A stretch of 64,000 bases of DNA. Source: Psammoneis japonica. Lineage: Eukaryota. Made by a program: the position numbers and the translations under genes. The stretch lies in assembly GCA_008632985.1 (NCBI GenBank), contig QPGO01000302.1:1-64000 (forward strand). Reading direction: 5' to 3'. Within the stretch, counting starts at the first letter, position 1, and each line of letters begins with the position of its first letter. The notes below the pieces were generated by a model. It was not told where the DNA came from and did no database searches. It worked only from the letters and a program-made list of their open reading frames with translations. Of this stretch, positions 15,020-52,470 are shown in pieces.

Positions 15020-15960
15020 AATGGAGGTAGGAATGATGACACAACATACACATCAACAACATCAACATGGCGACAGTGACACAAGTCTGCCCGTCAGTGC
15101 GTCAGTGCGACAGGGGCTCGGGGCTTTCAACAGGTGTCACTGGCTTGTGCTGTCGTTGGCCAAACAGTTGTCCGCCCTGCTACCTGCTCTACTAGTAGAG
15201 AGCAGATGGTTCTATCCTCCGCCTCAGCATCGTGGCGCCCGCCATTGAGACGAAATGAAGCGGCCAATTGTGGCCACCCAATCCAACCAGTGTTCTCTCT
15301 CAGACAAGGATTGGTGTGCACCAGCCAGCAAATGGATGCGACCTCTGAGTCACGTTCCATGATGACAAGAAATGACAGCTGAAAATGTGTTGGCCATCCA
15401 ATGCTCTCGCAGAATGAAACACCACTGAAATGATGCTGCAATGGAGATGGTCTGTGTGGAGCATCTCTTCTCAAACCAACCCTCTGGTGTGTGCAACAGC
15501 AAATCGCACATGGATGGAGAGGCACTGTGTCAACGCATTTCTTCCTGGAGCCTTGAAGAAACTTGCAATGCCATGGTTCATTGTTGGATACCATGAAATG
15601 TGATCTCTATCTTCTGGGGATGTTGGCAGTGGGTGCAGCAGCAAGGACAAGTGGGGTCATGTCAGCAGACAATCTTGTTCATTGGGAGCAAGTTTTGCAC
15701 AAGCTTGGCCATGCTCACTTTGTGTGATGTTGTGTGACATCAATTTTGAGTGAATGACCAACCAATCAACTCAAATGCATCATTGGACCAACCACACTTC
15801 TTTTCATGCACTTCATTGGAGCAGGGCTGAAAGCCTCAAATCGAAGCACTGACTTGCTTTTGGATGTGACAGAAGAATCCTGCACTTGCAACACCGTAGA
15901 GCAGCTGGGGGCATGCAAGGCACCAGTGGTGTTTCTCCAATGTGCAAACCTTGGAACAAT

Positions 15961-16002
<42 letters not shown>

Positions 16003-16600
16003 TGGGGGGCAATTGTCATTGGTGGCCCTTTTCACCCAATGCATGTCTGCTGAGGCACCAGATTGGCTGGTGATGGAACATTCTGTCACTTGCTGCAAGG
16101 AAACAGACAATCGCTCTCTTGTTGGACTCTTCTTCTTCAGGATGCGGCAGCAGAGAGTGAAAATTTGAAACATTTTGAGCCAACGATGAGTTGTCACAGA
16201 AAGAGTTCATGCCATGAAGAAACACCAGATCACAGAATTCCATCACCTGAACAAGAAATTGCAGAAAGGAAAGAAAGCTGCATGCTTCAGCACAACAGGA
16301 GGAGGGCCAAAAACGAAAACTGGCACAGCACAGTGCACCAGTGGAACACCGACCAATGACAAATGTCCATCCAAGGTGCCATGAAATTGCACCGCTGAAC
16401 CATCCTGCTCCCCACTGTGTGGAAGTTCAACATTGATTCTACGAGTTCAAAGACTGACACATGCAAAGCAAATCCTGGAATGATGTAGATTCCCATTTGG
16501 CAAGGATTGCACCCAATCACAAAATTCGCCGGGGACGGGAAGTTAGGAGGAACAGACACAGGGGCAATTTCAAAATTGATGACCGAAAGCGCCAGCGCCC
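15020..16600. mobile_element. Degenerate TpA-depleted repeat island, class not recognised
   Basis: Near-absence of TA and TG/CA excess between two normal genes; no intact ORF. Confidence 0.55.
15963..15996 (+). repeat. (GA)n microsatellite
   Basis: Perfect GA run of ~16 units. Confidence 0.95.
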
Positions 16601-25967: not shown

Positions 25968-26123
25968 TTTTAGAATCTACCTCGAGAAACGCAATAGAGG
26001 AGTCGAGAGAGTTATTGTCGAGACAGACGAGTTTTTAGTTGTAATCAAGGCAGCAAGAAATAGTAAGTGATGAAAAAATGAGAAAAGAGAAGAGAGGAAC
26101 TTCAAACTGCGCGCGCGCCAAAA

Positions 26124-28869: not shown

Positions 28870-29444
28870 TGTTGGACGAAAGCTTTTCATCCCGTTGGAG
28901 TATGACCATCGCTGTAGCGGTTCCCACCACCACTCGCCAAAGTCTTCTCTTAGAGAGCAGGGCTCTGCCATTGCGCATCTCAGTCTCCGCCATCTCCCCA
29001 CTCCCTCAGTGCCTCACCATCGACCATCGCTTCGTTCCCGGAACACTCTCTTGTTTTGTGTTTTGTGAATGTTTTGCCATGTTTTGCGATAAAATTTTTG
29101 CTTGACGGTCGATGCATGGACGGCCGGGACGTTACAAGTCCGTCCGCGTCCCGTCCGTCGCGCGTGCTCTTTGACGCGAGATCGCGCATGGACAGAAAAT
29201 GGAAAAAAGTGGACAGAAAAAAATTTCTGTCCATTTCCGTTGGGCACGATCGCGCATGGACAGAGTTTCTGTTGCCATGCTGACAACAAGCCACTTTGCA
29301 ACTTTTCTCCTTTCTATTGGGATGTCTTGAGGAGCAACATGACAAAACACAGCAAGCACGACTGCCAGGGTTCAATGGTTGGGAATGCTCGTTGTTCTTG
29401 TTTTGAGTGGCTGCACCTCTTTCACACCTCTTGTGTGCGCAGGT
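28870..29444. mobile_element. Left part of an older TpA-depleted element interrupted by the Copia, with clustered short repeats
   Basis: GATCGCGCATGGACAGA at 29180 and 29248; TGGACAGAAA...TTTCTGTCCA hairpin at 29210-29233; sequence resumes after the Copia TSD at 35911. Confidence 0.5.
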
Positions 29445-30094
29445 TGACAGGATTTGAACAAGATTTTAGTTTGTCACACGTGATCATGTGTGCTCTTGGT
29501 TCCGCGCACATCGTGCGATGCAGCTTGCTTTCGAGCCACCGGCGCTCACAAGAGCAATGACAGCAGACGGGTTCCAGCCCCGGGTGGGGCTCCGTGTGAC
29601 ATTGGGCCCGCAGAATTCTGCGTGCGAGCTTCGTGGCAAATTTGTGCTGCAATGAAAATGCAAATGATCGCCAACAGAAAAAGAGGCAATTTTACGAATG
29701 CATCTCCTCCTCCATGCTTGAAGCACATCATTTTGACAGTTTGCCCGGGTGTGCTCTTCAGACATTGAAGAACACACCCAGTGCATTTTCATTCTCACAA
29801 GTGTTGAAAACAGAAAGCCTTTGGCTTTGCAAAACAGGGAGCATGAAACAATTTCGTAGAATGCAACATGTGGAAATCTGCGTGCGCGACATGCGATGCG
29901 ATCCAAAAAACTGTTGATGTCACAGTGCAGCAGTGCGAGGCCCCACCTGGAGCTGGAACGTGCCAGCAGTGCCGACATCACGACGCCAGCCTTTCGGCTC
30001 CTGCGGCGGTCTCTGCATGGAGACTCATCTGCAGTTTAGACAGCAGCAAGGAGTTGTTGTTTTCTTCCACCCCAGTCATCTTCATTTTCTGTCA
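29445..30094 (+). repeat. 5' LTR (247 bp plus a MITE insertion)
   Basis: Colinear with 35664-35910 once 29567-29969 is removed. Confidence 0.93.
29567..29963. mobile_element. MITE copy 1 (~397 bp) inserted in the 5' LTR
   Basis: TIRs ACGGGTTCCAGCCCCGGGTGGGG / CCCCACCTGGAGCTGGAACGTGC; CAGCAG duplicated on both sides and single in the 3' LTR (empty site). Confidence 0.92.
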
Positions 30095-32405
30095 GATTGA
30101 CAGTCTCGCCAACAGCACCAGAATTTTGCTGAAAGCCGGGGACCCGAAGTGATCCATGACAGTGTTGGCCATGGTCTCCACAGTTTGGCAGCGGCATTCA
30201 GCAAAATTCTGATGCTGTTGGTGAGGCTCGCTTTGCCAACTAGAGATGAAGAGAGGGCGTGAAGGATGCCAAGAACCTTGTTGCTGATCTCAACTTGAGC
30301 ATGGTCGCTGATGAGCTTGGGCAGGGCACCGCGATTGTGAATGCTGTCTTCGAGGGTGTTGACAAATTCTTTGTCAGTTTTGGTGCCATGCACATCAGTG
30401 ACGAGAGATTCCATGCCAACAAAGAGCTGGGCGCTGGTGCAACCAGAGTCAACAGCAGGGGTGTCGGAGCACACCGTGTTGGTGGCAACGGGTTCATTGC
30501 GTTGGTGGACATTGAGAGCCGGGTTGGGTGACTTGCGCACCTTTTTCAGGTGCGTGCTGGCTGGCATGCAGGCACACTGCGTCATGCAGTCAAAAGTGCG
30601 GCAAACAGTGTCCTTTAGGAGAAAGCCAAAACAAGGGCGGAGGGACTCAAAGTCATGATCCTTGGGATTGAGTTCGTGCTCATGGCGTGCGTAGAAGAAA
30701 TCAGATGTTGGGAGCAGGTGATCATCAAGGACGGAGTCTGCTGCATGGCATTGTTGAAGACATGGCAGTGATGACAGTTGCCGAACTCATCAAAGAGGTT
30801 GGAAGTCGGGTCATCCTGGAGGTTAGACACAGCATCACACCATGTCTCATCATCGGCGAACTGGTGGTCAAGGACAGATGGATCCCATGTGTCATCACCA
30901 GCGAGAATGACATGCGGCAGAGTGTCCCATTCGGCGTCAGTGTGTGGGCGTGTGGCGATGCATGGAAGGCCGGCTTCAATGTTGATGGGAATGACGCATC
31001 CATCAACAGTGGTGATGCGCTGCAGACCATTGGGGACCTTGACGACCAATCATTGACATCATGTTTGCACCACTCAAGCTGGCCACAAGAGTGCATCGTC
31101 TTCCCCTTTCCAGTGTGGGCATGCTGGTGAAGGATGGCAATGGCAGGGCTGCGTTGCGTGTGGATGACACCACCGGCAGTGACAACAGGAATGTCGACTG
31201 GTTGATGATCGTCGACACCTTGGACGTCAACCTGGCAACCAGTGCGGGCAATGACACAAACATCATCACCTGCGACACCACCGTTTGCACCATGATCCAC
31301 AAGAGCACCTTTGTGAGTTGACTTGTGGGTTGAGGCAGAGCAGACAACATTGTGGTTGTTGACGCGATGGCATTTATGACCGTTAAGCTCAATGTCAGTG
31401 TTGGCAGTGCAGAAGGACACAGATCCATTGGATTTCTCGTCGGAGTGGACAGAAGGTGTAGATCGGGGGGTTTCTCACCAGAGCGGGCGGAGGGGGGGGG
31501 GGGGGGGTGTTCAGGTGCCAGGAGGCATTGCAAGTTGCTGGGTGGTGAAGGCTTGCACCGTGTGAGATGGGCCAGGATGGGGTTGGCATCAGCCGTGTTG
31601 GTGGCAGCATCAGATGGTGTGAGTTCTGATGCAAGATCATGGGTGTTGGCGGACAAGTTGATGTCGCCATCACTGCCAAGATGGAGGTTGTGCAGGTTGA
31701 CCATCGTCAAGTCATGGCAGTTGCCGGTGTGGGCATTGCACGAGCCAAGGATGACAGCCTTGGTGGAATGGGGCAAGGTGTCCCAAATGCACTGATGGTC
31801 CAGCGGAATGCAACGCCATTGTTCCCTGGTGAGGGAGTTGCCGTGGGTCTGTGCAGCACAAGCTTGGATGACGTCAACATCGCTGTTGATGTTGAAGAAC
31901 ACATCATCGTCAGGGTCGTCGGGGGCCAGGTCATGTTCGCAGATGGCACGGCACGGAGCATGAGGAGCCATCTTGGGGGTGAATGTGCTGTTGCACTGTG
32001 CTGTGGCAGAAAGCAGGAGTCCACAGCACTCTTCACAAGAGAGGCCCTTTCCATTCTGCGTGCGGAACTGATCGGCCTGATTCTTCACTGAACAGAGTTC
32101 TTTGACAGGGTGAATGGCGTTCTCAAGCATGACACATTTCTGGCCAGCAGAGAAATGGTCCACACCCGGGACAAGAGCTTCACACTTGTGGAGCTGGTCC
32201 TGCCAGTGAAGTGCGAAGGCATGGGTGGATCCTTTCCAGGTGCCATCACCGAGGCGAACAGTGGTGAGGTGCGTGAGAAGGGTCGAGGACTCCAGGGATG
32301 CACGAGCAGAAGCAAGGGTGCACTTGGAGAGGTCACGACAACCACTTGAGCATCAGAGGAGCCGACATGTTGACAAACAAGTGCCTTGCCTTTGTCATTC
32401 TGCAA
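30095..32405 (-). pseudogene. Inverted gag-protease-integrase segment of the Copia
   Basis: Minus-strand QNDKGKALV..DAQ (gag), LVDHGANGGVAGDDV (protease), RNEPVATNTVCSDTPAVDSG...KLISD (integrase), while LTRs and RT are on the + strand. Confidence 0.88.
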
Positions 32406-32409
32406 GATC

Positions 32410-35400
32410 CGTTCGAGTGCAGCTGAGCCGCTGCCAAACTGTGAAGACCATGGCCAACACTGTCATGGATTGCTTTGGGTCCCCGGCTTGCACCTGGCTG
32501 CTCGCCCTGATGTGCGTGTGCTTTCTGCTCAACCACATGGCGTCTGCCAAGCTCCACTGGCGTGCCCCCCACCGAGGTGCCATCCGGCTCTGCTCCCAAC
32601 ATCAGCCCGCTCCTCCGCTTTCAATGGTGGGAGCCCGTGTGCTGCCACCTGGATGATTCTGACTGGCCGTCTGAGTCCCGTGAATCACGCGGTCACTTTG
32701 TTGGCATCACTGAACACGTTGGTCACCAAATGACATTCAAGATTCTTTCTGATGACACTCAGAAGATTCTCTGCCGTTCCAACGTGCACTCCGCCCGTGA
32801 TCCGTCTGCTCCAAACCTGCATCTTGATCCTCCTGACAAGAAATCTGCTGAACCTGTCATTAAATCCCGCCATGACTCCAAGGATTTGCCAGATTCACCA
32901 GATGGGGAGGCAATCAGGATGCCCAAAATGCCGGTCTTTGACCCCAAGGACATCATCGGATGCACCTTCCTCATGAAGCCACAAGAGGATGGACAACGCC
33001 ACAGAGCCCGCATCGTCAAAGCCGTTGAGGACCATGACTGGAAAATTGGAGACAATCCTGAACTGGTCAAGTTCATTTGCTCCGTCAACAATGACGAATG
33101 CGAGGAAGTCCCAGCCTGCAACGACATCATGCACCACATTGAGCAAGGACGAGGACACCACCCTCTGGAAGTTCCAAAGCATCGCATCGCATGAAGGACC
33201 ATTGCGACCCCATGATCCCTCTTGGAAAGGCTCAAGCTGCAACGTCATGCTTGAATGGGAGAATGGGGAGATCACGTCCGAACCCCTTGCCATCATTGCC
33301 AAGGATGACCCTGTCACCTGTGCCATCCATGCGCGTGAGGACGGCCTTCTAGAAACCGAAGGATGGAGACGTTTTTGCAAGACAGCCCTCCGTCAGAAGA
33401 AGCTGTTCCGCATGGCCAACCAAGCCAAGTCACGCTCCTTTTGCACTGCTCCACGACACAAGTGCGGGTGTGAAGTGCCGCAGGACTGCAAGCATGCCAT
33501 GGCCCTTGATGAGCGTAACGGCAACCGCAAGTGGGGGGACGCAACGGACCTTGAGATGACTCAGCTTGGTGAGTGCGAGGTCTTCCACGACTGCGGACAC
33601 TACAAGGATTCCAGTGCTCCATCAGGACACAAGAAGATCCAGGTGCATCAGACGCTGCGACATCAAACATGACAGATGGCACAAAGCAAGGCTTGTTGCC
33701 AATGGACACCTCACAGACGTGCCCATCGACAGTGTCCATTCCGGAGTGGCATCTCTCTGTGGCCTGCGAACGACGATCTTCCTGACCGAACTCAGTGAAC
33801 TGGTGACCCATGCAGAAACAGGGAACAAGTGCTTAAACCACAGAGACAGAGATTTTCTGTGTGTGTAAAAATTGTGAGATTGTTTTAGTTAGAGTGCAAA
33901 TGCGTGATGGTGTCTTTTTCCAAGAAACAAGAATTCTTGTTGTGTGACAAGTCATTGGAAAGACTCAATCACAAGTCTTTTGTAACACTCATTGACACTC
34001 ATGCGGAGCCAATTTGCAGGCTCATGCTTGGTGCTGCACACATCCTGCGCAGACCCTTCGTGCGAGGTGAGTCATTTGCGCGATGGCCAGTCGCGCCGGT
34101 CTCAGTCGCATGGGTCACTCCTGCAGCCTGTTGCAGGTCTCGCACTGGGAGTCGTGTTTTCTGCAACACGCTTCTGCGGGATCAGCGTCGCTGCAGACAG
34201 CCTGCAGATGCAGGAAAGTGGCATCATTGGCGGCCATGGCAGGGATGCCCACTGCATTGAGTTAGAGACCTGGGCCACTGACATTCGGAATGCCTGTCTC
34301 GAAGCTGCGACCAAGGAGAAACTGCACATTGCAGCAGGCCCCGAGTTCAGCAAGCTGGAGGGACACATCCTTGTCATCCACAAGGCCTTGTGCGGACTCC
34401 ACAGCTCTGGCCTCAGATGGCATGAATGCTTTGCCAATTGCTTGCATGCTGAAGGCTTCTTCCCATGCAAAGCCGAACCCGACATCTGGCTGCGCAGGAA
34501 TGGTGACCACTGCAAATGCGTGGCAGTGCATGTGGACGACCTGGCCTTTGCCATGAAGGACCCCCAGGCTTTTGCAGACACCCTCATGGAGAAATGCAAG
34601 TTCAAACTCAAGGGCACCAGACCGTTGGAGTTCCATCTTGGTTGCGACTTCACCCGTGACCCAGACGGCACCCTGTGCCTTGCTCCCCACAAGTGCATTG
34701 AGTGCATGGTTGACAACTGCGCACACCTCTTTGGGGAGAAGCCCCGCACTGATGTGCTTTCACCCCTTGACAAAGGTGACCACCCTGAGCTCGACACCTC
34801 CGAGTTACTCAAACCGGAGGGCATCCACCAATTCCAATCCTTGATTGGATCCCTGCAATGGGCCGCATCTCTGGGTTGCATTGACGCCACTGCAGCTGTC
34901 ATGTCCCTGTCTGGCTTCCATGCAGCGCCCCGCCAAGGCCACCTGGACCATGCCAAACGCATCTGCGGATTCCTCTCCAAGATGCATCATGGTGCCCTCC
35001 AAGTGTGCACCAAGGAGCCCGACCATTCGGACCTCCCTAAACCCGTGCATGACTGGGCTCAATCTGTGTGTGGGGAGGTAGAAGAGCTGCTCCCGCAAGA
35101 TGCACCCGAGCCACTTGGCAAGTTCGTCACCGCCACACACTGCGTTGATGCGAACTTGTTCCATTGCATGCTCACTGGATGCTCTGTCACCGGCATCCTC
35201 CATTTCCCAACAAGTTTCGGCTGATTGGTTCTCTAAGAAACAAGCAACAGTTGAGACTGCTGCACATGGATCCGAGTTTGTTGCTGCAAGGACATGCGTT
35301 GAGCAGATCATTGACCTGCGCATCACTTTGCAACACCTTGGCATCCCCATTTGTTAAAAATTGCCTCATGTTTGGGGACAACAAGTTGGTTGTGGACAGT

Positions 35401-35660
35401 GCTGCCATCCCTCACTCCAAGTTACACAAGTGACACACCGCCCTCTCATTCCACCGTGTGCGTGAGGCGATTGCCTCCGGTGGCCTCAAGTTTCATTTCA
35501 TCGAAGGCTCCCACAACCCAGCTGACATCCTCAGCAAGCATTGGGGTTGCTCCCAAGTCTGGAGCCTCCTTCATCCTCCAATGTTTTGGAACTTTGATCC
35601 TGAGGCTTTCAACCAATCTGACCTTGAATCTGTCGCTGTTGACCCCTCAAGCAAACTGGG
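32410..35660 (+). pseudogene. Copia integrase C-terminus, RT and RNase H pseudogene
   Basis: PNISPLLRFQWWEPV, EWENGEITSEPL, HKARLVANGH, TDIRNACLEA, KALCGLHSSG, VAVHVDDL, WFSKKQATVETAAHGSEF, NPADILSKHW; frameshifts and stops. Confidence 0.93.
33800..34257. mobile_element. ~450-bp non-coding insertion interrupting the Copia RT
   Basis: RT reading IFLTELSEL stops at ~33803 and resumes as ELETWATD at ~34259; weakly inverted ends; exact termini uncertain. Confidence 0.65.
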
Positions 35661-35663
35661 GAG

Positions 35664-35910
35664 TGACAGGATTTGAACAAGATTTTTGTTCATCACACAC
35701 AATCATGTGTGCTCTTAGTTCCGTGCACATCACGCGATGCAGTTTGCTTTCGAGCCACCAGCTCACAAGAATGATGACAGCAGTGCCGACATCATGACAC
35801 CAGTCTTTTGGCTCCTGTGGCGGTCTCTGCACGGAGACTCATCTGCTGTTTAGACAGCAGCAAGGAGTTGTTGTTTTTTCTTCCACCCCTGTCATCTTCA
35901 TTTTCTGTCA
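35664..35910 (+). repeat. 3' LTR
   Basis: TGACAG...CTGTCA, preceded by the PPT and followed by the TSD. Confidence 0.95.
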
Positions 35911-36310
35911 CAGGTCATCCTGCAGCCAACAATGAAGTGTGGCATTGAAAAGATTGCAGCAACATGTTGTGCCATGGCCCTGGCGCATCAAACAAAACAA
36001 AGCGAGGTTGTGCAATGCTCATCCTCAACATGGGGCAGAAATGACAGCATGGCCTTTCACTGTCCACCCTCACTGCGGCCCACAAATTGCATCAGACAAA
36101 ATTGACTCCCTTTAGATTCCCACAAGCAGTGCACCACCAATCCAAAGGAAGTGCACACAGGGAGTGTCAAACAATTTTTGAAGCAAGTTGGGAAGATTGG
36201 CAATCTTTTCTGGCCGCTTCTTGAGAAACAAACCCATTTGGCCAGGGTCAGGGCATGCTTGTCTGAGCAGGATTGACAACTGTTGCTCCTCTCTTCTCAA
36301 CTTGGATCTC

Positions 36311-36546
36311 GCACATCATTTTTTACTTGGCCAGGTGTGCTCTTCAGACATTGAAGAATGCACCCAGTGCACTTGTGTTCTTGCAATTTTGTCAAATGAA
36401 GTGTCTGGGGTTTCACAAAACAATGAGCATGGAATTTCTTTTGGAAGACCACACGTAGAAATGTGCACCCGAAACACATGACGGATGACAAAAAAATGAT
36501 TGTCATGTGTCAGCACTGTGAGCTCCCACCCAGGGCTGGAGCGTGT
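36311..36546. mobile_element. MITE copy 3, right half only
   Basis: CACATCATTTTTTACTTGGCCAG...CTTCAGACATTGAAGAA...GAGCTCCCACCCAGGGCTGGAGCGTGT aligns with copies 1 and 2. Confidence 0.85.
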
Positions 36547-37537
36547 TGCCAACCGCACATTGTCTCAGCCGTCTGGGTGTCTGAACATCTGGGCATGCCA
36601 TCACAGGCATGACACCAGGCACCTCCACCTGGCCAGACCAAAAGCTGTTCCTGACCCTGGAACACATGCCCCCATTGTTCACAGGGGCACCTGCAACGGC
36701 CTCTGCCCAGAACCTTGTCTGCTGCACAGACAGCAGCAAGGTGTTGTGCACTGGGTCCAGGCTGGAGCTCTGCTTGTGGTGTCCACCTGATGTCACCAAC
36801 ACTTGAGTGATGGAAACAGAGCAAGGATGACTGGCTCTTGTTCAAACTCTGTCAGGTTGACAGTCTTGATGACCCTCATCAATGCAACAAGCTCTCATTG
36901 AGCAACAAGAACATCCCAAGGACACAAGTGCACAAGTGGTGGCTGGGGTCAATTCTTTGGTCCATTTGACAGCAACCCCAGAAGCCACTCAAGAGAAATG
37001 GAAGAGCAACATTTGCAGTGTCAGGTTGGTGGGGAGTGAGGACAAAAATCAAAGAAGAGCTGGATTTTGGCAGCCAACCTTCAAAATGAACAAGGAAACA
37101 GTGAATGGCAATGGCGATAAATTGGCAGCACAAATGCCAACAGATCACTGCATTCCTCAGTCAGGGAATGGAAATCTGTCAGTGACAACAGCAAATTCTG
37201 GCACGAATTCCAAAGCGGGCTTGGGCTCAAGTCTTGCCAACCATGTGTCTCAGTCATCTGGGTGTCCAAACATCTGAGCATGCTGTCACAGGCATGAGAC
37301 CAGGCACCTCCACCTGGCCAGACCAAGAACTGCTCCTGACCCTGGAGTGCATGTCCCTGTCATTCATGGGGGCACCTGCAATGGTCTCTGCATGGAGACT
37401 TGTTTGCCACGCAGACAGCAGCAAGGTGCTGCACTGGGTCTGGGCCAGAGCTCTGCTTGCTGTGTCCACCTGATGTCATCAATGCTTGAATGATGGAGAC
37501 AGAGCAAGGATGACTGGCTCTTGCTCAAATTCTGTCA
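36547..37537 (+). mobile_element. Pair of ~305-bp LTR-like direct repeats (36547-36854, 37235-37537) with a 380-bp spacer
   Basis: Both start TGCCAACC and end CTGTCA; they share the (GGTCTCTGCATGGAGACT)...GACAGCAGCAAGG core with the Copia LTR; the first is followed by GGTTGACAGTCT, like GATTGACAGTCT after the Copia 5' LTR. Confidence 0.8.
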
Positions 37538-37799
37538 TGTCCTTCCCATGCACCCCCCCCCCCCCCCATGACTGTGGTGCAGCACACACAACGGCGTGCA
37601 ATTGTGAATGTGCAAACTTCTTTTTGTGTGACAATGCATGTTGTGCTTGCCTCCCCAGCTGCATGTTGAAGTCATTTGTCAAATGGCATGACATGACAGA
37701 TGTTCATGGCATCAACAACATTGCCATGTTTGATTTGCTCTGTGCAGCTGGTGGTGCGCACAGTTGTTGTTGTTTCATGTGGCCCAACACAGGGCTGCT

Positions 37800-40700
37800 C
37801 TAATTTTTTTTACAGTCTTTCTCAAGCAACTTTTTTTTCACTCTGCATGTGCACAGAGTGTGTGGAGTGTTCTCTTGAGCACTGTTCTCATTTGCAATCT
37901 CTTGTGTTTGTTTCTGGACAAACTTCCAGCCAGTGATGTTTCAAGTGTCAACCTTGTGTCTCTGATGAAGACAAGTTGTCCTGGCGCAGCTTGCACAGCA
38001 GTGCAATGTGCAGAATGCCCCACAAAAGCTGCTGCTGACAGCACTCCATCAAATGGACTCTCTGCATTCAGAGGTGCATTTTGTGAATCAAATGTGTGCA
38101 GCACATTGCAGGGCACTTGATGCATGTGCTCTGTCACAGTGTTTGCCTGTGGATTTTGTGTGGCTGTGGGCTTGAATTTAGTGCCGCAGTTATCTTGAAC
38201 CACAACCTGGAGTTGCTGTCTGCAGAAGTGTGTGTGAGATCGCTGAGGCCACATGTCTTGATGGCAGTTGATCACACTGATGAAACATCAAAGTTCTTTT
38301 TGAGTTGCAGGAGCTGCAGCTGCTTGGGTTGCCTCTACTTTCTTGGGCATTGGTCTGGCACCATTGTGTGAGATGCAAAAGCCCAGAGAGTCTGCTTTGG
38401 GCTTGGCAAAGAAGGACATTTTGGTGTTGACCTTTTGGCTGGCTTGATCCAGTCGCACAAGAGCTGCTTCAAACTTCTTTAGATGACATGAGAAGTCACC
38501 CTCAGCAAGGCACAGTGTGTCATCAAGAACACAGGCTCAGGCTCTGACAAACTCCAGACCTGCCATGAGCTCAGCACTCATGTGTTCTTGAAAATTGCCT
38601 GGAGCTCCACAAATTCCAATGGGGAGTTTGCAGCATTCACACTTCTTGCCCCATGGCATCATGATCTTGCACAAGCACCAAGCATGTGGCATCAGCTTGA
38701 TGTGACAGTGTCCCATGCTTAAATCTCAAATTGAGCAATGCTGCACACATCAAAAACTTCCAGCTTCTGTGGCACATCCTAAATCTTGGGCAAGGGATTC
38801 AGAGCACACATTGCCTGCTTGCTCAGCTCACAAAAGTTGGGCAGGAACCAAGCTTGACCGTTTGTCTCATGTTGAATGAGAAAGGCTGGAGCTGCCTGCT
38901 CAGAATGACTCATTTTTCTTGGGACTCCCATCTCACAGTGTCATTTGACTTCCTTTGAAGTGGCCCACGCCAAGGCTTGTGGAGCAGGAAATGGCTTCAC
39001 ATCATGTGAGATTGTTCCCAACTTCAATGTGAGGCCTGCTGATTTCCCAGTTCATTTGCCCAGAGAGCCATCAAAAAGATTCTCAAAACTTTTTAAGAGG
39101 AAGTTCAGTTGCTTCTGCTCCTCTGGGGCCAGATGCATTGCTGCAGCAGCTGCCTCATTGAGGTCAGCAACATGACAGTCAGAGCCCACGATCCTGTCAA
39201 TCCTGTCATTGAGGCCATTCATGGTGCAAGACTCTTCAATGTGATTGGCAATCAGCTTGAACACTTTGGGATCAAGAAGTGCATCAATGTTTTTCTCTGG
39301 GGCAGCCACATTTTCCCACTTGACATCTTTGCTCACAAAGTCCAGTGTGGCTCCAAGACTGCTCATCAGATTGCATCCCATGATCACATCATGTTGACTT
39401 GCAGAAGCAGCAGTGTCCTTGTCAACATGTGCTGTCTTCTCAACAAGCCCATGCTGTCAGCCACAAAGAGCCCACCTCTTTGGCACCCCAAAGCTCAGCT
39501 GCAGATTCCTTGGTTCTCTCCATTTCCATGTGAATTTGTGCAAAATCATGGTTGACAATGTTCTGCTGTCAAGGTGGATGTGCAGGAGGCTTGTTTTTGG
39601 CTTTCCCCAAGGAGGCATTCTCACAAGCAATGACTGCTGGACTTGCATGTGTTGCTTTTGCCTTTTTCTCAGGCTTTCTGACATCCAGCAATGTGCCTGA
39701 CTCCTTGACAGGTGCCAGTCATTCCTCAGAATTGTCATGAGTCATTTTTTCAATTTGACAGTTGTCCTGACCAAGGGTGTCAGAGTCTGAATCTTTGGCT
39801 TGATGTTTCTTGTCCTTTGCCAGGGAGCTCATCTTGAGGGTTTTCTGAATTGCTTGAGCAACCACAGTTCTCATCTCTTCTTTTTGAGAGACATTTTTTG
39901 CATCACCATGAGACTGCATGCAATTGCCATTTGAATGTTGCCTTTTTGGCTCTCATTCAAAGTTCTCACAGTGTTCCTTTGCCAGTCTTTTAACAACCCA
40001 GCACTTGCACACACATCATGAGTGGTCTTTTTGCAACAGCTGGACCACCAATTGGACTCAGAACATTTGGCGCCAGATTGGCAGCCATTTTTGGGATCAT
40101 GATGGGATTGGTCTTTGGCTTTGAACCCAGGCTTGTTGCCAGCATCACCCTTGACATGAATCTGGTCAAATGTGTCCTCTCTGCAACCTCCAGACACTCC
40201 AAAAACTCTGCCAGCTTGTAAAAGGTGTGATTGAGAATTTCGAGACCTTGAAGAGTGGGCTGACAGCAAAGCTCAGATTCTGGTTTGACTTGAAGGGAGG
40301 ATGGCACTTGAAGTCTTCACTCACTTCTTGGGCCCAAGCTTCAATTTGGCAGATCTTCACAGAGTCTGGCTTCTTCAGATTGCTTTGCAGACAGCACCCC
40401 TGACTTTGGAATGCATTCTTTGGGAGCGTGCAATCACAGAGGTGATGTGGGCAGTTTTTGAAGGCTCCATCATCATCTTTGGAGTCAACATTCCCCACCT
40501 CATTCTCAAAAACTTTGAGAGCATCTCCCTGCAACAATGCACGCACCTTGCAAAACTTGTCAGCCTGCTCTTGGATGTTTTGTCCAAGAGCTGGGACCTT
40601 CTTGCAGTTCTTGAGGAATTCAATGTGCTTGGGAGCTCCCTGCTTGTTGCAGCACTTGGCATCAACAGCCATGTGCAGGTCTTCTTGTCTCCGGGATGAA

Positions 40701-41300
40701 AGCACTGCTCCATTTTGAGGCACTGACTTGGTTTTTGAGTGTTTTTGGCTCAGAAATCAATTCCAGCAGCACAGGTGCAATTTTTCCCTGCTTGGTGGAA
40801 GACTTGATGCTGGCTGCATGAGATGAAAGCTTCTTTTTTTTTGTTTTTGCCTTCTGTGGTGTGTGTGCACAGGGCGCTGTGCTCAAAGAATGAGTGCAAA
40901 ACAAATGAAGGTGTTTTTGGCTCAGGAATCAATTCCAGCAGCACAGGTGCAATTTTTTCCTGCTTGGTGAAAGACTTGATGCTGGCTGCATGAGATGAAA
41001 GCTTCATTTTTGTGTTTTTGCCTTCTGTGGTGTGTGCGCACACTGCGCTGTGCTCAAAGAATGAGTGCAAAACAAATGAAGGCAGAGTGAATTGCAAAAA
41101 GTGGAAAATCACAAGATTGAATTTTGTTCTGTGATTTTGGGTTTCTCCGAAAGAGCCCCAATGTCCTGGAATGTTCTTTGCACTGCTTCTTCAGACAAAA
41201 AGCCTTGCAGAGAATCTGGTTGTGACAACAATCTGGTTGTGACAATGTTTGGATTGTCTCGGTGCATGACTGATGTTGACAACTTGTGTGCATCAACATT
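37800..41300 (-). mobile_element. Ty3/Gypsy retrotransposon remnant (gag-protease-RT-integrase, deleted and degenerate)
   Basis: Integrase KPTATQNPQAN..EHMHQV...QAAPGQLVF (37.9-38.2 kb); RT LSMGHCHIKL...PWGK.CECCKLPIG (38.55-38.75 kb); protease MIMGCNLMSSLG (39.4 kb); gag-like LLQGDAL (40.5 kb); Gypsy domain order. Confidence 0.85.
40739..41082. repeat. Tandem duplication, two ~172-bp units
   Basis: GTGTTTTTGGCTCAG...GCAAAACAAATGAAG starts at 40739 and again at 40911. Confidence 0.92.
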
Positions 41301-41499
41301 GCCTGTTGATTTAATTTGCATTTTGAGCATTCAATCAGAGGATCTCAGCAGCCAGTCTGACCTTCTTGCAAGAACTTCTTGCACATCCGCAATTGTGGTG
41401 CAATTGACATGTGTGGCAATGCACAGTTTTGAGTGTGCTTGTTTCTTTCTGTGGAGCAATGCATGTTGCAAGCAAAAGCCCTGATCTGCAATCTTCCCA

Positions 41500-44400
41500 A
41501 ACTCTCTGACTGCAAAACACTGGCAGCAGGGCCATGCAGAGGGCCTCTGCCAGGGGCCACCTTTTTCCATCTCATGCAATGCACAAAAATTGTGCACCAC
41601 CAGCCAAAGCCTTCCATGACAATGTCAAGCAATTTTTTGTGCCAACACACTTTCCTGCAGCACGGCACCTGTTGGCACTGACCACAATGACTTTGGCCCA
41701 TCAGGCAACATCATTTCTGGTGCCTGCCATTGAGTGTGTGCTGTTGCTGGTGTTGCACCACAGCAACTCATGTCATTTTTCAGCACACCTGCAGTGGCTG
41801 TCACAGGTGCTGTCCCCAGCAACAATGCCATTGATGCTGATGCTGCTGTTGTTGCAAAAACCATTGCTCTCAGCTGCACCACAGGCATGGCAGGTGATGC
41901 CATTGCTGTGGCAATCAAGTCCAAAATGCACCCAAGCCAAAGTGCTGAAAATTTTGCACTTTTCTTTCTCGTGCTCTGTTGCCTGTTGCCCCCCACAGGT
42001 GCTGTGACAAGTGCCAATGCTGTCAATGAAGTTGACAATGCTGCAACACCATTGCTGTCAATCACAACAGCCCTGACATGGCAGGTGGTGCCATTCACAT
42101 GGCTGTTGATTGGGTTGCTGTCTCTGGTGCAAGCCTGCACTTGCTCTCACTGTGTGATGATGTGGTTGGATTTGTCACTTCAAAAGGACAACAACAAAAA
42201 CAAGAGCAGCAGTGCTGCAGCTTGTGCATTTCTGCTCAAATGAGCCCCTGCACTTTTGCTGCATGCAGCAAGAACCCATTGTGAGCATTGGGCCTTGCAA
42301 AAACTCTTGACTTGGCACACAAGCATGGGCCAAAGACAGAAGGTGGTGGCCTTTCAAAAGGCATTGCCAAAATGACAGGACAGTCTTCAAGGTTGTTCTT
42401 TGACCAGCACCATTGCCAGAAGAGAGTGTGGTTGATGTTTCTTTTGAAGAAAAACATCTGCGTGTGCATTGACGCTGTGAAGTCCTGTTGCCAAATGTGT
42501 GTTGCTGGCTGCCACCTGGTTGCCAATCCTTGTGCACAAACATGGCTTCCATCTTTCCAAAGTTGGGGCATGTGGCCAGCTCAAAAACACTCATGACATG
42601 GCATGTGGTTTCTTTTGCTTTCAGGGATGCAGCTCAATCATGAGCTGCCCCACCTTCCACATCTGCCTTGACATGGCCCATGCCACAGCCCCCATGACAG
42701 ACATGACAAAAGGCTTTTTCATCAATCTTGCTGTCTTGGGCCACCCATTGCTTGTGGACTTTGCCAATGCCACACGTGCACTTTTTTCCATGATGTCAAG
42801 TGACGCAACAACATGGCATCTTTTTAAAATCCCAAAAGCAAAGAATGGTGGGTAGAAACATCTGCCAAATGACTTTCATCTGCAAAAATCAAAAAACAGG
42901 TGTGAGTTGCCACTGACAAACACAGCAGCAGCATGGTCCAATGGGGTGAATGCATCAGGAGAATGGGCAGCGGTGTTGTTGGCTGCCAGTGGAAGGCATG
43001 GGGCCACAGATGGCAGTGGCATCAGCACTTGTGGGAGGAACTGCAGTGTGAGAAAAAAAGTGTGAGTTGGCATCATTTGACGGTCATTTTGCCATTGGAA
43101 AAAGGACAAAAATGTGTTGAATAACACCAGCTGCACCAAGGGCAGGAGAATCAGTGTCATGTGCACTGGTGGCAAGACACCCAGGGATGGCATTGCTGCA
43201 AGTGGCACTGCCTGAGGAAGGCAGTGGGGCATGAAGACAACAAAACCAAAACCCAATTTCTGTGTTCAAAGGTGCTGCTGTGCTTCTACCCTGCAGCTGA
43301 ACCTTGGTTTCATGAGCAGATGTTGCATTCTGATGAAGCTCATTGCAGCATGCAAGAAGTTTATGAGTCACAGAACAGCATTGGTTGGTGTCATCTGTTC
43401 AATGGCAGATTCCATTTTGTGGAGTGAAGCTCAATTGTGACACTTGGCAGACAGCGGGCATTGCAGCCATGAGGAAAAATGCAAACATTTGGGTTGGTGG
43501 TTGGCAATGACTTTGGCATGTGTTTTGTCTTGATGGTGGGAACTGTGAGATTCCCACAACAATGCAGCTCATGGTCATGACTCCCAAACTTGCAAGTCAT
43601 CTCAACACTGTGACACAGAAGCAGAAGTCAAGGCCATCTGCTCCAGAGTTGATGACCACCTGGAGCAAGGCAAAAGGCAGATTTGTTTGGCCTTGTTGAT
43701 GGACACTTGATGCACTTGACTCACCACGTGCACAATCAGCCAGCAAGCTGTGGTTTGTCCCACATTTAAGCCAAGCATCTGTGAGGTAAAAGGTTCATCT
43801 GCAAGAGGTGCTTGCACCATTGCACAAGTTGTTTTGGTGCCACACCACCACCTTCTGGTGGTGCTGATCCAGGCCAGTTGCCATGCACTCATCCTGTCGC
43901 ACTTTGTGCATGCTGGGAGTGTGGGTTGGCTTGTTGCCAGAGCTGCAGGTTGGAACAAGTGCAGCAGCACCTTTGAGTGCAGAGCTGGGGTTGTGTTTTT
44001 GTGAGTTGCTGGTGCAGTGCAGCAATTGATGTGGATCACATCAACTCTTGCATCTTTGGCGCATGCTTGGAGATGAGCCTCTCATCATCTCCTGTTGCAG
44101 TCAGTTGGGTTGCTGGAGCATTTGAGGATTCAGAAGTTGGGCCTGCAACCAATCTTGTTCTGGTCATGATCCTGGTGCCAGCAGCACTCTCTTGCACTTG
44201 CACCCGGTGCAGGTTTGGGCAAAAAGTGTGAACAGTGTGCTTGGGTGTTCCACAACCATTGCATGCACACTTTTTCTTTTCTTGCAATTTTGGCACTTTG
44301 CAGTTGCCCACAAGTTTAAACACCATGGTGCAGAAGGTGGCACATGCTCTCAACCCCCATCTTGCTCTGTCTGATGTTTGAAGCAACCAAGATCAAGCAG

Positions 44401-45250
44401 CCATGTTGGACTGGTTGCCTTGTGCTGGCCTGGCTGGGTTGGATGCTTGAAAGATCAAGTCTGGAAAGGCCAGATGCACCAGCATTTGGCCCTCCTTTCT
44501 GTCAGACTTTTTTCCTGCTCAGTGACCCAGTGCAGGATTGTTCCTCTCCCCATTGTCTGAGGCCCCTGTCAGATTGTCATCCAAGGTTGGTGAGCCACTT
44601 TGTCAAAGTCAGGAATTTGCTTTCCTTGTTGCATCATCAGCAGCTGACAGGGAGGGTGGTGAATGACTGGCGCACTTCTATCAACAAGTGTGGTTGCTCC
44701 AACAGTTGTCATTGGGGCCATTTGAATGTGCCAAGTTTCCCATTGGCTCAAGTTCATGCCTGCACTGATGGCCAAGAAAGCACTGTGTTCTCCAACAAGG
44801 ACAAGCAGGTGGCAGCACCCCCCGCTGGGATCACCGCCAGCTTGTTGTGTGCTTCATTGTTTTCCACAATCAATGCTTGTGGTTTCTTGCTCTCTTGTTC
44901 ATGGCAGTGGCAGCCACCACAAAGATTTTTGCACACACACCCAGAAAAAGCTCTCATTTTGCCAACTTGTTGTCACCACCCATGCACCACAGGTTGACCT
45001 TGGTGGCTGGACTTGCACACTCTTCTTTTCTGTGCTTGCAGATGAGCCTGCTTCTTTGCAGGTGCTTCAGGCACTCCTTGATGGGCCAACAAGTGGCCTT
45101 GCCAAGCCAAGCAACCAAGCTTGCACAGCTTTTGTTGGTTGGGGAAACTGTCTGGCACGCACATGTGAGGAGCACATGTGCAACGTCACCTGGTGGCACA
45201 GGAGAAGGGACAGATGCAGAGCAGGGATGGAGCTGAGTCATGTGGGCAGG
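41500..45250. mobile_element. Highly degenerate TpA- and CpG-depleted repeat sequence, class not recognised
   Basis: TG/CA-saturated composition, continuous with the flanking TE remnants. Confidence 0.5.
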
Positions 45251-45700
45251 GTGTGGGGTGGGATTGGGGTTGGGGTCAGCAAGCTGGGGCTGCAGTTTGG
45301 TGGAGCGACAGGTGAGTTGGTCAGCAAGCAATTTGGTTGTTGTTGCAAAGCTGGGGCTTTTTGGAGGCCCCGTGGTGATGGAGTTGAGGTGTGGTGGGTC
45401 AAGCCGAATCATGATGAAGCAGCAGATGTGGACCGTTGTGCACAGGTGCATGCAACATGGGTGGCGGGGTGTTGGAAGGAGGATTCGGCATTCCAGGGAG
45501 GTGGTGGTGGGGCAGGGACGGGGCATTGTTGATCAGCTCCGAAAAGGAGGTGGTGTGCGAAGCAGCCGGGGGCTCCGAAGTGATCGATGGCAAAAGGGAT
45601 GAGGCAGATGCCAGCGTTGTTGAGGGTGGATGTGAGGGTGGTGTTGTGTTGGGTTTCGTGTGTTCCGTTGAACTTCCGTTTGGTGCTCGCATGGTGTGCC
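45250..45700 (-). mobile_element. Possible C-terminal restriction-like endonuclease region of an RLE (CRE-like) non-LTR retrotransposon
   Basis: KRKFNG...LIPFAIDHFGAPGCFAHHLLFG resembles the K..K(Y)...FxPxxxExxGxxG tail of RLE domains; motif resemblance only. Confidence 0.45.
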
Positions 45701-45934
45701 TCGGTGTACCGTGCCGTAAGGGCTGAGAGTGGGGGCTTTGTTTTTTCCGCCTGCCCTGTTTGCGCGCGAAAATGTTCGCAGCCGCACGACGAGCGACGCG
45801 CTCGAGCACCGTGAACAACACGGGGCATCCAACAACCGAAGCACAAGCTGGAAGCACAAGAAGACCTTACTGTATTTGAGCCGCCGGTCTTCCTTTGGCT
45901 GTGAGAGAGACCCTAGAGAGAGAGAAAGAAGAAC

Positions 45935-48319: not shown

Positions 48320-48698
48320 AGGCCGTTTGGAGCTTTTGAAACTCCCAACAGGAGATCTGTAAGCGGGGAAGAGAGAAGAGAGTAGCTAGCTTGTGTCACC
48401 ATACTGTAGCTTGTCTTCTGCATTCCACAATTTACTACTCTCTCTAGAGCTTGTCTAGAGTGAAAAAAATCTAAAAGTAGTCAGTTAGTTGGCCAATCTA
48501 AGGATGGAAATGCGATGCCGAATCAGATTCAGTCCTACTGATTATTATTAGAAGTTGTCTAAGCGTTGCCAAAAGTGTTTCTACAACAAGAGAGAACTGT
48601 GGTACAAGTAGTCATGATACTACGGCCTAAGCAGTAGCAACCACACTGTTTAATAGTATGAAGCAGATAGCATGGAAATGAGGACTGATGAATATGGT

Positions 48699-50049: not shown

Positions 50050-52470
50050 TGTACGGCGCGAAAATGCACGCAGACGCGCAAGATTGCCAACGTCTTATGT
50101 GTGATGGGCTACTGTGCTTCAAAGGAACGTTGGGATCGTGCGTGGCGTGCGCATCGCACTGTGGTTGCGGTTGAGAATCCCCATGGGATTCCCGGCCACC
50201 GCCTCAGCGGATCAGCACCTCGATGACGTGCAACAGTGATCCACAGCACTGGATCTAAGGTGTGTGATAAACAGCAGTAGTTGCACCGTAGAAGCAGCAG
50301 CTGACAGGAACCCGGACATGCGAGTCTGAAGGTCTGTGCAGCAATGCAGCCTGGACAAAATGGAGGACATCCGGCACTGTGCCGAGAACAAACGTCACTT
50401 CACCCATTCCACCAGGCGGAGGAGCAACATACCCCGCAACCAACCCCCAGTGCTGGGCATGCTCAGCAGCAACCTCGAGACGCTCCTCTTCCTTCCGAGT
50501 GGGGGGGGCGGGGTGCCGCGGCGATCCCTTGACACAACGCCACAAGTTGGTCGTTCGTCATGCCGCCATTGTTGCCAACACCGCCAACTGCCAACAGACG
50601 ATCCGAGATGTCGAAACCATCAAAATCCGCAGCGTCATCCATCTTGCTCGCATCAAACAAAGGGCTGCCCTTCGTGACCGAGCGCTCGTCGTTGTTTGCT
50701 GCAATGCATTGCATGCCACGCTTCCATGCAGCTCCCAGTGGGAAATCCGCACCCAACTCCGGAGTGGGCTCATCCACAGGAATGCCACTGGGGAAAGTCT
50801 TGCCTGGTGGCAAAGGCAGGAACAGCTTCAGAACAGAGATCTGAGGGTGGTCTTCCGCAGCCGCAGGTGGAGGGAAATGCAGACGCCCCACAGGTGCAAC
50901 CCAGTCATCCTCCGGTGGAGTTGTTGGGCCGTCAACAGTGTCCGGCGCCTGATTGCGAAGTCATTGAAGCTTGAAAGGAGTTGAGAGCGACAGAGACTGG
51001 GGTGTGACTCCCAATCTCGTCCGACAAGCTCCCAATGACAGAGGTGGTCCCTTCCGTCGAAGCAAACACTTGAGGGCGGGTGAGAATCATGATCCACTTT
51101 GAGCAAACAAAGGCAAACTGGGTTGCTTTCATTGGATTGGATGTGACAGTGTGGCGAACCTCATGGTTCACACCCGGTCGAAGCGTCGAAGCCAGTGCCA
51201 TTGCATTCTCGTCTGAGAACGGAAACGCTGTTGTGTGGTGCTGGTCAGCAGCACCACGACCCTGCTGGACAGCAGCGGCGGAAGGAGCAAACACAGTCAT
51301 TGAACAATGACTTCACAGACTCAGTGTAAATGGCTGACTTCGGAAATTGTGAGGAGCCACTCCCATGGGTTCCGGCCGTGAACTCTGCAGGTGGAGCATC
51401 CTGTCCACAACTTTGTGGTGTTTGATTCAGATTTTCAAAATTTTCAATGGCTGCAAACAATGTGAACCGTGAACCCTGCATGACGGTTGCTCTCAAGCAG
51501 GCACCACTGGGGCTTGGAGGACCCATCATGCTCCGTGCCTGCATCGAAACATTCGTGGCTCGGACAGACATGTTGTGTGGTCGAGCGCTGAGCATGCAGG
51601 ACCAGCAGTTGAACAACCAGCAAGAAACAGAGATGCCATTCTCAAGAGGCACACACACATGAACATGTTCACAATCCCACACTCGACGCGTTCCAGATGC
51701 AGGTGGGAATCCGTGTGACATTGGGCCCGCAGACTTCTGCGTGCGAGCTCCGCAGTAAAATCACACGGTGATTAAAATGTCAATGATCGCCAACAGAAAA
51801 TGAGGCAATTTTGCGAATGCACAAACTCGCACATGATTGAAGTACATCATTTTTTACTTGGCCAGTTACATTCTTCAGACATTGAAGAATGTAACTGGCG
51901 CATCATTGTTTCTATAAATTTGTCACACAAAACGTCTGGGGAACAGCGAGTCTGGACAATTTTTTTAAAATGTCACACGTAGAAATCTACGTGCAAAACA
52001 TACGACGGATGATAAAAATCATTGTTGTCACACGTCAGCACTGCGAGCTCCCACCTGGGGCTGGAACGCGTCACTCGCACCAGCGAGGGGGTCAACCATG
52101 GCCGACAGCATGCGGCCATTTCCCGCCGGCGAGGGTGTGACCCACACACGCCGAGCGGTTGTCAAGAAAGTGGCTTTTGGTTGCATAGAGGAGACCATCC
52201 TCTCAGTGTCAGGCATTGCCGCATTGGCACAGTAAAAAAGAGGGGGATGGAGACAACGACTGTTCATGAGTCGGTTCCGGAATCCCAGTCAAATTGCTCT
52301 GTCATGAGCGCAGAATTTGATGGAGTGAACATGTGGGACACCTGTGTCACTCCCCGATCCTTAGCAATCATCAACAGAGTGTTAATTTTGCAATGAGACA
52401 TGGTCGCTGCAGTGGACCATGGTTGCACCCCTCTGATGCTGACTGCCAAGGGAACAATGCGTGGATTGGT
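50050..52470. mobile_element. TpA-depleted, CpG-retaining repeat island with a decayed - strand ORF; class unknown
   Basis: Very few TA outside the nested MITE; stacked pseudo-ORFs; lies between normal genes. Confidence 0.55.
51686..52071. mobile_element. MITE copy 2 (386 bp), the least mutated copy
   Basis: Perfect terminal ACGCGTTCCAG / CTGGAACGCGT; CACTCG duplicated at 51680-51685 and 52072-52077. Confidence 0.95.

Follow-up and report, generated by a model that had tools for sequence, protein, structure and literature searches.

A TpA-depleted transposon island in the diatom Psammoneis japonica and its likeness to TpA-targeted mutation in Bigelowiella natans

Introduction

The closest described counterpart of the locus examined here comes from the alga Bigelowiella natans, in which 231 new mutations were reported from two integrated viral regions (Mettrop et al., bioRxiv 10.64898/2026.01.13.699255). 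As set out in the main text of that preprint, 230 of the 231 were A->G or T->C changes, all of them at the dinucleotide TpA and at a rate approximately 1000 times the background, TpA-poor coding sequences were enriched in reverse-transcriptase and DDE domains, and an ADAT2-like deaminase was proposed for this alga (10.64898/2026.01.13.699255). The words "tetranucleotide", "trinucleotide", "flanking" and "diatom" do not occur in its main text, and its supplements or figure 2B may hold data on sequence context. A literature search turned up no description of TpA loss from diatom repeats; a single "TpA" match, in a paper on diatoms, came from the word "Tpase". Here we describe a 64,000-nucleotide stretch of the pennate diatom Psammoneis japonica (GenBank assembly GCA_008632985.1, contig QPGO01000302.1, positions 1 to 64,000; hereafter the window), in which an island that by its sequence consists of nested, dead and degenerate remnants of copia long terminal repeat (LTR) retrotransposons has lost nearly every TpA to TpG or CpA, at a speed set by the flanking bases.

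Other processes also bear on such a pattern. In fungi, repeat-induced point mutation (RIP) acts as a repeat defence through transitions at one dinucleotide, CpA -> TpA. Deamination of 5-methylcytosine drives the decay of CpG in methylated diatom transposons. Among the adenosine deaminases, TadA deaminates the A in U-A-C-G and the DNA editors derived from it favour a 5' T, while the natural substrates of TadA and ADAT2 are tRNA loops. Hypermutation of viruses and retroelements by ADAR produces clustered A->G changes on one RNA strand, with U favoured on the 5' side and G on the 3' side, and AA is also edited.

Results

Extent of the island

The G+C content is ~48% across the window, and the observed/expected ratio (o/e) of TpA is mostly 0.5-0.75. 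Within it we found a TpA-poor island of 16.7 kb (~28960-45706) retaining 57 TpA sites, which is broader than the span (33000-45700) in which an earlier sequence-only reading had described selective survival of TpA. All 33 of the 500-nt windows between 29001 and 45500 held 0-7 TpA each, with o/e values of 0.00-0.22. CpA and TpG were enriched across the island (Table 1), the AT dinucleotide was observed at normal frequency, and G+C reached 0.50-0.58 in parts, against ~0.47. Both edges were sharp (250 nt or less) and adjoined housekeeping genes, with a TpA o/e in the flanks of mostly ~0.5-0.75.

CpG was also reduced in the island, in a different pattern. At 29.0-30.0 kb the CpG o/e was 0.85-1.02, which is near normal, and the TpA o/e there was already 0.07-0.12. 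CpG was approximately halved at 30-36 kb, and at 36-45.5 kb its o/e fell to 0.00-0.27, with both dinucleotides gone. Loss of TpA and loss of CpG are thus uncoupled, and TpA editing is the much faster clock.

Direction and specificity of the changes

The direction of change was read from codons that are conserved among intact relatives of the copia remnants. Of the 120 listed relatives, the 64 with at least 1800 aa were aligned to the window, and we kept the 725 codons in 30000-35700 at which at least 30 relatives were aligned and at least 80% of them agreed. None of the 39 conserved Tyr codons was retained; they now read TGY (25), TGG (1), CAY (10), TTC (2) and CTC (1), where Y is a pyrimidine and R, below, a purine. 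Arg was retained at 23 of 50 positions, with the losses going to TGN or CAN, and these losses are CpG decay. All residues other than Tyr and Arg were retained at 67-100%. At codon position 2, A->G was observed in 26 of 39 cases after T vs 3 of 196 after A, C or G, and AA->AG in 2 of 60; at codon position 1, T->C was observed in 10 of 39 cases before A vs 0 of 55 before T or G. Expressed as relative loss, which is not a per-generation rate, 39 of 39 Tyr codons changed vs ~1.5% A->G elsewhere and ~57% CpG loss in Arg codons. None of the 77 conserved His, Gln, Cys and Trp codons has become TAN.

A mass balance of the sense strand was drawn up against 27 near full-length loci among 79 metagenome loci of related intact copia elements. 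Per kb, the relatives and the island element had, respectively, 49.9 and 4.2 TA, 45.8 and 40.0 CG, 77.3 and 105.5 CA, and 75.7 and 100.0 TG. The combined loss of TA and CG (51.5/kb) compares with a gain of 52.5/kb that was evenly divided between CA and TG, without strand bias. The intact relatives themselves had a TA o/e of 0.49-1.15, and none of the 1665 500-nt windows from the 79 loci lay below 0.2. For TpA-poor relatives in other diatoms the same 0 of 1665 windows applies, but both peptide patterns used in the search contain Tyr and are blind to edited copies, so this count is no evidence of absence elsewhere.

We conclude that transitions have changed nearly every TpA to TpG or CpA, with no difference between the strands and at a speed well beyond that of other changes, and that CpG also decays to TpG and CpA, more slowly. 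The sequence-only reading had argued that GC-biased gene conversion would not be dinucleotide-specific, and the codon counts exclude that process on just this ground (26 of 39 at TA vs 3 of 196 in AA, CA and GA). Similar A->G rates in the AA, CA and GA contexts, which would have spoken against a TpA target, were not seen.

Neighbours of the surviving TpA sites

The surviving sites were compared with two baselines, the flanking genic DNA of the window (1546 TpA, with 28.1% RTAY and 20.1% YTAR) and the 79 loci of related intact elements (22589 TpA, with 32.5% RTAY and 18.0% YTAR). From 29001 to 45700 the 57 sites comprised 0 RTAY, 29 YTAR and 28 of mixed class. The probability of finding no RTAY among them is 7e-9 with the flank baseline or 2e-10 with the relatives, and for the 42 sites of 33000-45700 it is 1e-6 or 7e-8, respectively; a chi-square test over the three tetramer classes gave p = 5e-10 or 3e-12. 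The two parts of the island agreed, with RTAY/YTAR/mixed counts of 0/17/15 at 29001-36000 and 0/12/13 at 36001-45700. The 57 sites lie in 57 distinct 10-mer contexts (53 distinct 8-mers), and the absence of RTAY is therefore not produced by repeated copies.

These counts bear directly on what had been noticed by eye. ATAT, ATAC, GTAT and GTAC were all absent from 33000-45700, as had been stated, and the first RTAY was encountered only at the right edge of the island (Table 1). The 22 YTAR survivors of this span were TTAA (9), TTAG (8), CTAA (4) and CTAG (1), and the 20 mixed survivors were GTAA (5), TTAC (4), GTAG (3), CTAC (3), ATAA (2), TTAT (2) and CTAT (1), with no ATAG; the list given by the sequence-only reading was right as to the types it named and lacked CTAT (44679). 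Its further statement that YTAR resists most applies to TTAA and TTAG/CTAA, which persist, but CTAG is nearly gone and survives less often than GTAA and TTAC. Five of the six surviving GTAG sites in the island (29857, 30692, 35079, 36456 and 42853) were observed within GTAGAA, a motif conserved in the LTR-like repeat, and this recurrence could reflect shared ancestry or a protected site.

Depletion by NTAN tetramer, as compared between the island and genes, was not uniform. With the flank and the relatives baseline, respectively, survival was 0.46 and 0.26 for TTAA, 0.26 and 0.23 for CTAA+TTAG, 0.13 and 0.11 for GTAA+TTAC, 0.08 and 0.07 for CTAC+GTAG, 0.075 and 0.06 for ATAA+TTAT, 0.04 and 0.05 for CTAG, 0.025 and 0.02 for ATAG+CTAT, and 0 for RTAY. 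The difference between CTAG and the other YTAR tetramers was significant (p = 0.0008 or 0.018). We fitted an additive per-strand model, with separate hits on the two strands and a rate that depends on the base following the A, and obtained loss rates (in model units) of 0.3-0.5 for A, 1.1-1.2 for G, 1.8-1.9 for C and 2.6-2.7 for T. Uniform loss was rejected against this model (p about 1e-13), as expected if the target is T-A-Y on each strand, and independent hits on the two strands with this preference fit the data. The four-base model fitted better than a split into purine and pyrimidine (p = 3e-5 or 0.005), and the saturated model gave no significant improvement over the additive one (p = 0.11 or 0.055). 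The description by R and Y is correct in that a pyrimidine is favoured over a purine at the 3' base, and too coarse in that the order is T > C > G >> A. It is because of this order that CTAG is not resistant and TTAA and TTAG are. Flanking bases thus set the speed of TpA loss in a graded manner.

Further signs of the same grading were observed outside the survivors' own tetramers. Products of the mixed class, measured against the relatives, increased by 19.2/kb with a 3' pyrimidine and by 10.2/kb with a 3' purine. Conserved Tyr codons (TAY) yielded TG in 26 cases vs CA in 10 (binomial p = 0.011), in an element that as a whole is without strand bias. A->G after T was found in 7 of 71 conserved Thr, Ile and Met codons (TAC/TAT) vs 0 of 60 Asn and Lys codons (TAA; p = 0.015), and two T-AA junctions survive among the Asn and Lys codons that follow a T. 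CpG loss showed no comparable bias (survival of RCGY 0.45 vs YCGR 0.31). The base at +2 after TpA, counted per strand, was A in 54% of survivors vs 26% in the flanks. The TpA sites that last are those within T-runs and A-runs (TTTA/TAAA).

Changes in place and reality of the sequence

Between the copies of a tandem duplication in the island (36543-36857 and 37231-37540) we counted 45 transitions and 6 transversions. CA of one copy stands against TG of its partner at 12 dinucleotides; these changes therefore arose in place, after the DNA was duplicated. Both halves of an inverted element were equally depleted, and depletion starts ~480 nt ahead of a high-copy LTR, in near single-copy DNA.

Of the words sampled from 39500-49000, a fraction of 0.94 was present in one sequencing run. 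Its contigs, assembled from exact 31-mers with a word depth of 59-69, covered 37553-45340 with 0-4 differences each, and the adjacent gene had a depth of 62.9. A persisting base modification is not needed as an explanation because TG and CA are fixed in contigs at single-copy depth. The copia part matched 12567 contigs at 80-100% identity with summed depths of 5,000-70,000, and the family is therefore very abundant. Differences between copies were found at 332-423 places per transition type vs 31-47 per transversion type, and reads aligned over the island region showed other letters at 1852 places (40 listed, 30 of them in the island). In a second run from the same sample the flanking genes were covered and the island was not; contigs departed from the window at 29046 and 41065 and continued TA-rich. 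This run may be a transcript library or may represent another allele.

Content of the island, small patches and flanking genes

An open reading frame (ORF) at 33986-35224 carries the Pfam domain RVT_2 and had 962 copia polyprotein relatives at E <= 1e-10, many of them 1850-1940 aa long. The two polyprotein remnants (Table 1) are truncated copies lying head-to-head and overlapping at residues ~943-970, and their junction is marked by a 66-nt inverted repeat (30130-30195 and 32427-32492, 92% complementary). The two LTR-like ends, compared as sister LTRs, gave short good blocks (120 and 134 nt) that differ mostly at CpG sites.

The remainder of the island was searched for other elements. Pfam gave only chance-level matches for 82 ORFs of 36.2-45.9 kb, and a relaxed tblastn with 64 copia proteins against 36-45 kb had a best E of 0.13, with a faint match of E = 0.004 at 45158-45613. 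A protein search with the ORF at 40169-40756 (minus strand) gave no match, and an exhaustive HMMER search with the ORF at 44957-45532 (minus strand) gave 0 matches. The island is open in six frames because TAA and TAG are nearly absent; between 28000 and 47000 we counted 54 stop-to-stop ORFs of at least 120 aa (maximum 449 aa), most of them meaningless. Gene callers would invent Cys- and His-rich proteins here.

Four small TpA-poor patches were also observed in the window, and no Pfam family was found among their 40 ORFs. A single N (7737) lies within one of them. The patch at 50500-51750 directly adjoins an LTR-like copy whose TpA is at a normal level (11 in 250 nt), and depletion therefore tracks the individual element or its age, not just the neighbourhood. 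When this LTR-like copy was compared pairwise with two island copies, TG or CA stood opposite 10 and 8 of its TpA.

The island is surrounded by gene-dense nuclear DNA of a pennate diatom. The 800-aa ORF beside the right edge had 85 relatives, the best of them in the pennate diatoms Cylindrotheca, Seminavis and Nitzschia at 46-52% identity, and no identical protein was among the matches listed. Its named relatives are diatoms, and one source labels it a transmembrane protein. Housekeeping functions were assigned to further ORFs of the flanks (Gcd10p, POP1, Nup93/Nic96, Seipin, NAA35 and ERO1).

Table 1. Positions of the island, its constituents, the small patches and the nearest flanking ORFs in the window
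Feature	Position	Strand	Remarks
TpA-depleted island	28960..45706	.	57 TpA in 16.7 kb, CpA/TpG o/e ~1.5-2.1
Span of the sequence-only reading	33000..45700	.	42 TpA: RTAY 0, YTAR 22, mixed 20
LTR-like repeat	29445..30094	+	relatives at 35664-35910, 36311-36545 and 51685-52068; summed read depth ~70,000
copia polyprotein remnant	30110..32396	-	residues ~215-970 of intact relatives, frameshifted (tblastn, full-length relatives)
copia polyprotein remnant	32429..35610	+	residues ~943-1850, RVT_2 at 33986-35224, frameshifted (tblastn)
Tandem duplication (36543-36857 + 37231-37540)	36543..37540	+	
Unclassified old repeat DNA	36546..45706	.	TA o/e 0.00-0.12, CG o/e 0.00-0.27; parts at single-copy depth
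First RTAY (GTAC), right island edge	45707..45710	+	
TpA-poor patch	6250..7750	-	overlaps copia reverse-transcriptase fragments (tblastn, minus strand, 7057-7936)
TpA-poor patch	15250..16500	.	5 TpA, unclassified
TpA-poor patch	50500..51750	.	1 TpA in 1250 nt, CpG not depleted, unclassified
TpA-poor patch	63500..64000	.	1 TpA (TTAA), continues past window end
LTR-like copy with TpA kept	51685..52068	+	
Seipin ORF, left flank	26082-27539		
800-aa ORF, right flank	45917-48319	+	without Pfam domain

Discussion

A proposed model

Taken together, the island is probably the outcome of enzyme-driven editing of TpA at the DNA level, directed at silenced selfish DNA, graded by neighbouring bases and of the type described in B. 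natans. In the model that we propose, repeats would be silenced after integration and a putative enzyme would then be recruited to them. TpA would be edited in DNA to TpG or CpA, by the same kind of process as in B. natans. On each strand a T-A-N site would be lost fastest with T on its 3' side, then with C, then with G, and slowest with A. RTAY is a good target on both strands and has therefore become extinct, while TTAA and TTAG/CTAA persist.

As to chemistry, the A of TpA may be deaminated to hypoxanthine by an enzyme of the cytidine-deaminase fold resembling TadA or ADAT2, with hypoxanthine then copied as G. Recruitment of such an enzyme to repeats is the chemistry we prefer, and we hold it tentatively, with somewhat less than even confidence. 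The record is strand-symmetric, so a changed A in T-A-Y looks the same as a changed T in R-T-A. T on the 5' side is an absolute requirement, a pyrimidine on the 3' side a preference, and an activity directed at T and reading R-T-A fits equally; a TadA-like adenine deaminase and a thymine-directed activity account for the data equally well.

Alternative explanations

A targeted hypermutation acting on thymine, for example through 5-hydroxymethyl- or 5-formyl-uracil mispairing with G, is thus the alternative that stands closest, and we consider it rather unlikely. Its preference would read R-T-A, with A > G > C >> T before the T, and by strand symmetry every context result can be rewritten for the opposite strand with the fit unchanged. 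Thymine-oxidising enzymes occur in protists. The sequence offers nothing against this chemistry, and what speaks for adenine is that the sole published proposal, in the main text of the B. natans preprint, is a hypothetical A-deaminase. If instead retrotransposon transcripts were edited from A to I by an ADAR-like activity and fixed by reverse transcription, copies would be born mutated; retrotransposons are indeed the recognisable targets and A->G accounts for one of the two kinds of change. But the sense strand gained CA (+28/kb) about as much as TG (+24/kb), AA sites were unedited (2 of 60), the 12 CA-vs-TG sites of the tandem copies place the hits after duplication, and depletion begins ~480 nt before the high-copy LTR, within DNA of nearly single-copy depth. 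The 3' G preference of ADAR is also unlike the order T > C > G >> A, and the changes in B. natans, as described in the text of the preprint, arise in integrated DNA viruses. We therefore regard RNA editing as very unlikely. The equality of sense-strand CA and TG gains, the unedited AA sites and the 3' order all depart from ADAR-type editing, which would change A to G on the transcribed strand only.

The context pattern could also come from the creation of new TpA in TpA-free DNA, in place of its selective removal. By our estimate, background transitions at ~205 CA+TG per kb could yield a few TpA per kb, near the 3.4/kb seen. Such regeneration should draw on RCAY/RTGY (56.5 per kb) about as often as on YCAR/YTGR (51.0 per kb) and so predicts ~25% RTAY, against 0 of 57 seen, and none of the 77 conserved His, Gln, Cys and Trp codons had turned into TAN; we hold it to be highly improbable. 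Explanations that need no targeted editing, namely GC-biased gene conversion, a regional mutation bias, selection against TA or a natively TA-poor family, could draw on the slightly raised G+C in parts of the island. They are scarcely credible given the A->G counts at TA and elsewhere, the normal frequency of AT, the TA content of the relatives (o/e 0.49-1.15, with 0 of 1665 windows below 0.2) and the fact that the lost Tyr stood at positions at least 80% conserved among aligned relatives, in a frameshifted pseudogene. We give similarly little credence to a sequencing or assembly artefact in which modified bases of repeats were miscalled as G or C. The N inside a small patch and the unrecorded library type of the confirming run would suit an artefact, but contigs of exact 31-mers at gene-like depth match 37553-45340 with 0-4 differences, and a persisting modified base would give mixed A/G reads by strand rather than clean contigs at single depth.

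Several observations weigh against DNA-level TpA editing as proposed above, or limit its reach. The evidence comes from one window and 57 surviving sites, and 9 kb of the island (36.5-45.7 kb) has no recognisable element. The small patches together held 11 TpA, with one RTAY in one count; this survivor is an ATAC at 15589 in the interior of a patch, and a GTAT at 7750 lies on a patch edge. Measured against the genic flank, the product bias was absent at 29-36 kb (14.4 vs 16.0 per kb) and present at 36-45.7 kb. The outcome at Tyr codons varied with the preceding base in the predicted direction (TG 14 and CA 7 after R, TG 12 and CA 3 after Y) with p = 0.47. Some of the 57 survivors may have arisen anew and not be ancestral; the fitted rates would then depend on the model, and only the ranking is robust. 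Random regeneration would nonetheless give ~25% RTAY and none was seen, so that an effect of context on removal is still needed. In detail, the TadA motif U-A-C-G differs from the 3' order T > C > G >> A. Finally, the confirming run, whose library type is not on record, is possibly the assembly's own source run.

Significance

Whether the window stands for a general diatom defence, similar in role to RIP, chemically opposite to it and editing TpA to saturation in silenced transposons with the order T-A-T > T-A-C > T-A-G >> T-A-A, and whether its origin or mechanism is common with Bigelowiella, is a proposition that we judge to be evenly balanced. If true, algae of the SAR group (Stramenopila, Alveolata, Rhizaria) would widely possess an immune-like system of targeted A:T->G:C DNA editing, whose enzyme could be identified by way of the flank fingerprint. 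Natural targeted editing of this kind in genomic DNA is known from that single 2026 preprint, for one alga and without an enzyme. A second case, which has reached saturation in transposons of an ecologically dominant and only distantly related lineage, the diatoms, suggests a process that is widespread and old.

There are also practical consequences. Diatom repeats of this kind should be recognised by their lack of TpA, their many Cys and His codons and their freedom from stops in all six frames, and divergence will overstate the age of transposons. As a testable fingerprint, the ranking of neighbouring bases can be compared with the 231 Bigelowiella mutations and, in vitro, with candidate deaminases and thymine-modifying enzymes. 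A natural editor of A in double-strand DNA would be of interest to builders of base editors.

Comparison with known systems

The island resembles the products of fungal RIP in its sharp compositional limits, its inactivated transposons and its repeats riddled with transitions at one dinucleotide. The sign is reversed, in that RIP raises TpA and lowers CpA and TpG, whereas here TpA is low (o/e 0.00-0.22) and CpA and TpG are high (1.5-2.1). RIP was rejected on the direction TA -> TG/CA and on a deficit, not an excess, of TpA. Decay of CpG through 5-methylcytosine accounts for the island's second signal, seen in CGN Arg codons changed to TGN or CAN and in a CG o/e of 0.00-0.27 in the older part; it differs from TpA loss in being slower (o/e ~0.85-1.0 at 29.0-30.0 kb, where TpA is gone) and without an RCGY/YCGR bias of the TpA type.

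With ADAR hypermutation the island shares clustered A->G changes in selfish sequences and a favoured 5' U. It differs in its equal CA and TG gains, in the rarity of AA changes (2 of 60), in the 3' order T > C > G >> A and in changes made in place in DNA. If it is the A that is edited, the requirement for a 5' T (U) and the favoured 3' pyrimidine would be like TadA and ADAT2, with the difference that here a 3' T at least equals a 3' C and a 3' G is tolerated.

The likeness to B. natans, as described in the main text of the preprint (10.64898/2026.01.13.699255), is the closest. In both, the changes are almost exclusively from TpA to TpG or CpA (36 of 39 conserved Tyr codons here now carry TG or CA), and in both they are limited to foreign or selfish DNA; here the island and at least one small patch carry copia remnants and genes are spared. 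TpA-poor clusters rich in CpA and TpG are left behind in each case, and in B. natans the process runs orders of magnitude above background mutation. The hosts differ, a chlorarachniophyte (Rhizaria) there and a diatom here, as do the modes of observation, since new mutations were seen in culture lines of B. natans and the process is read from its end state here. The viral regions of B. natans are mildly depleted (Rho TpA 0.45), whereas the island stands at an o/e of 0.00-0.22. A system of this kind has itself been described only very recently, and what the P. japonica island adds is the diatom lineage, the saturation and the ranking of neighbouring bases.

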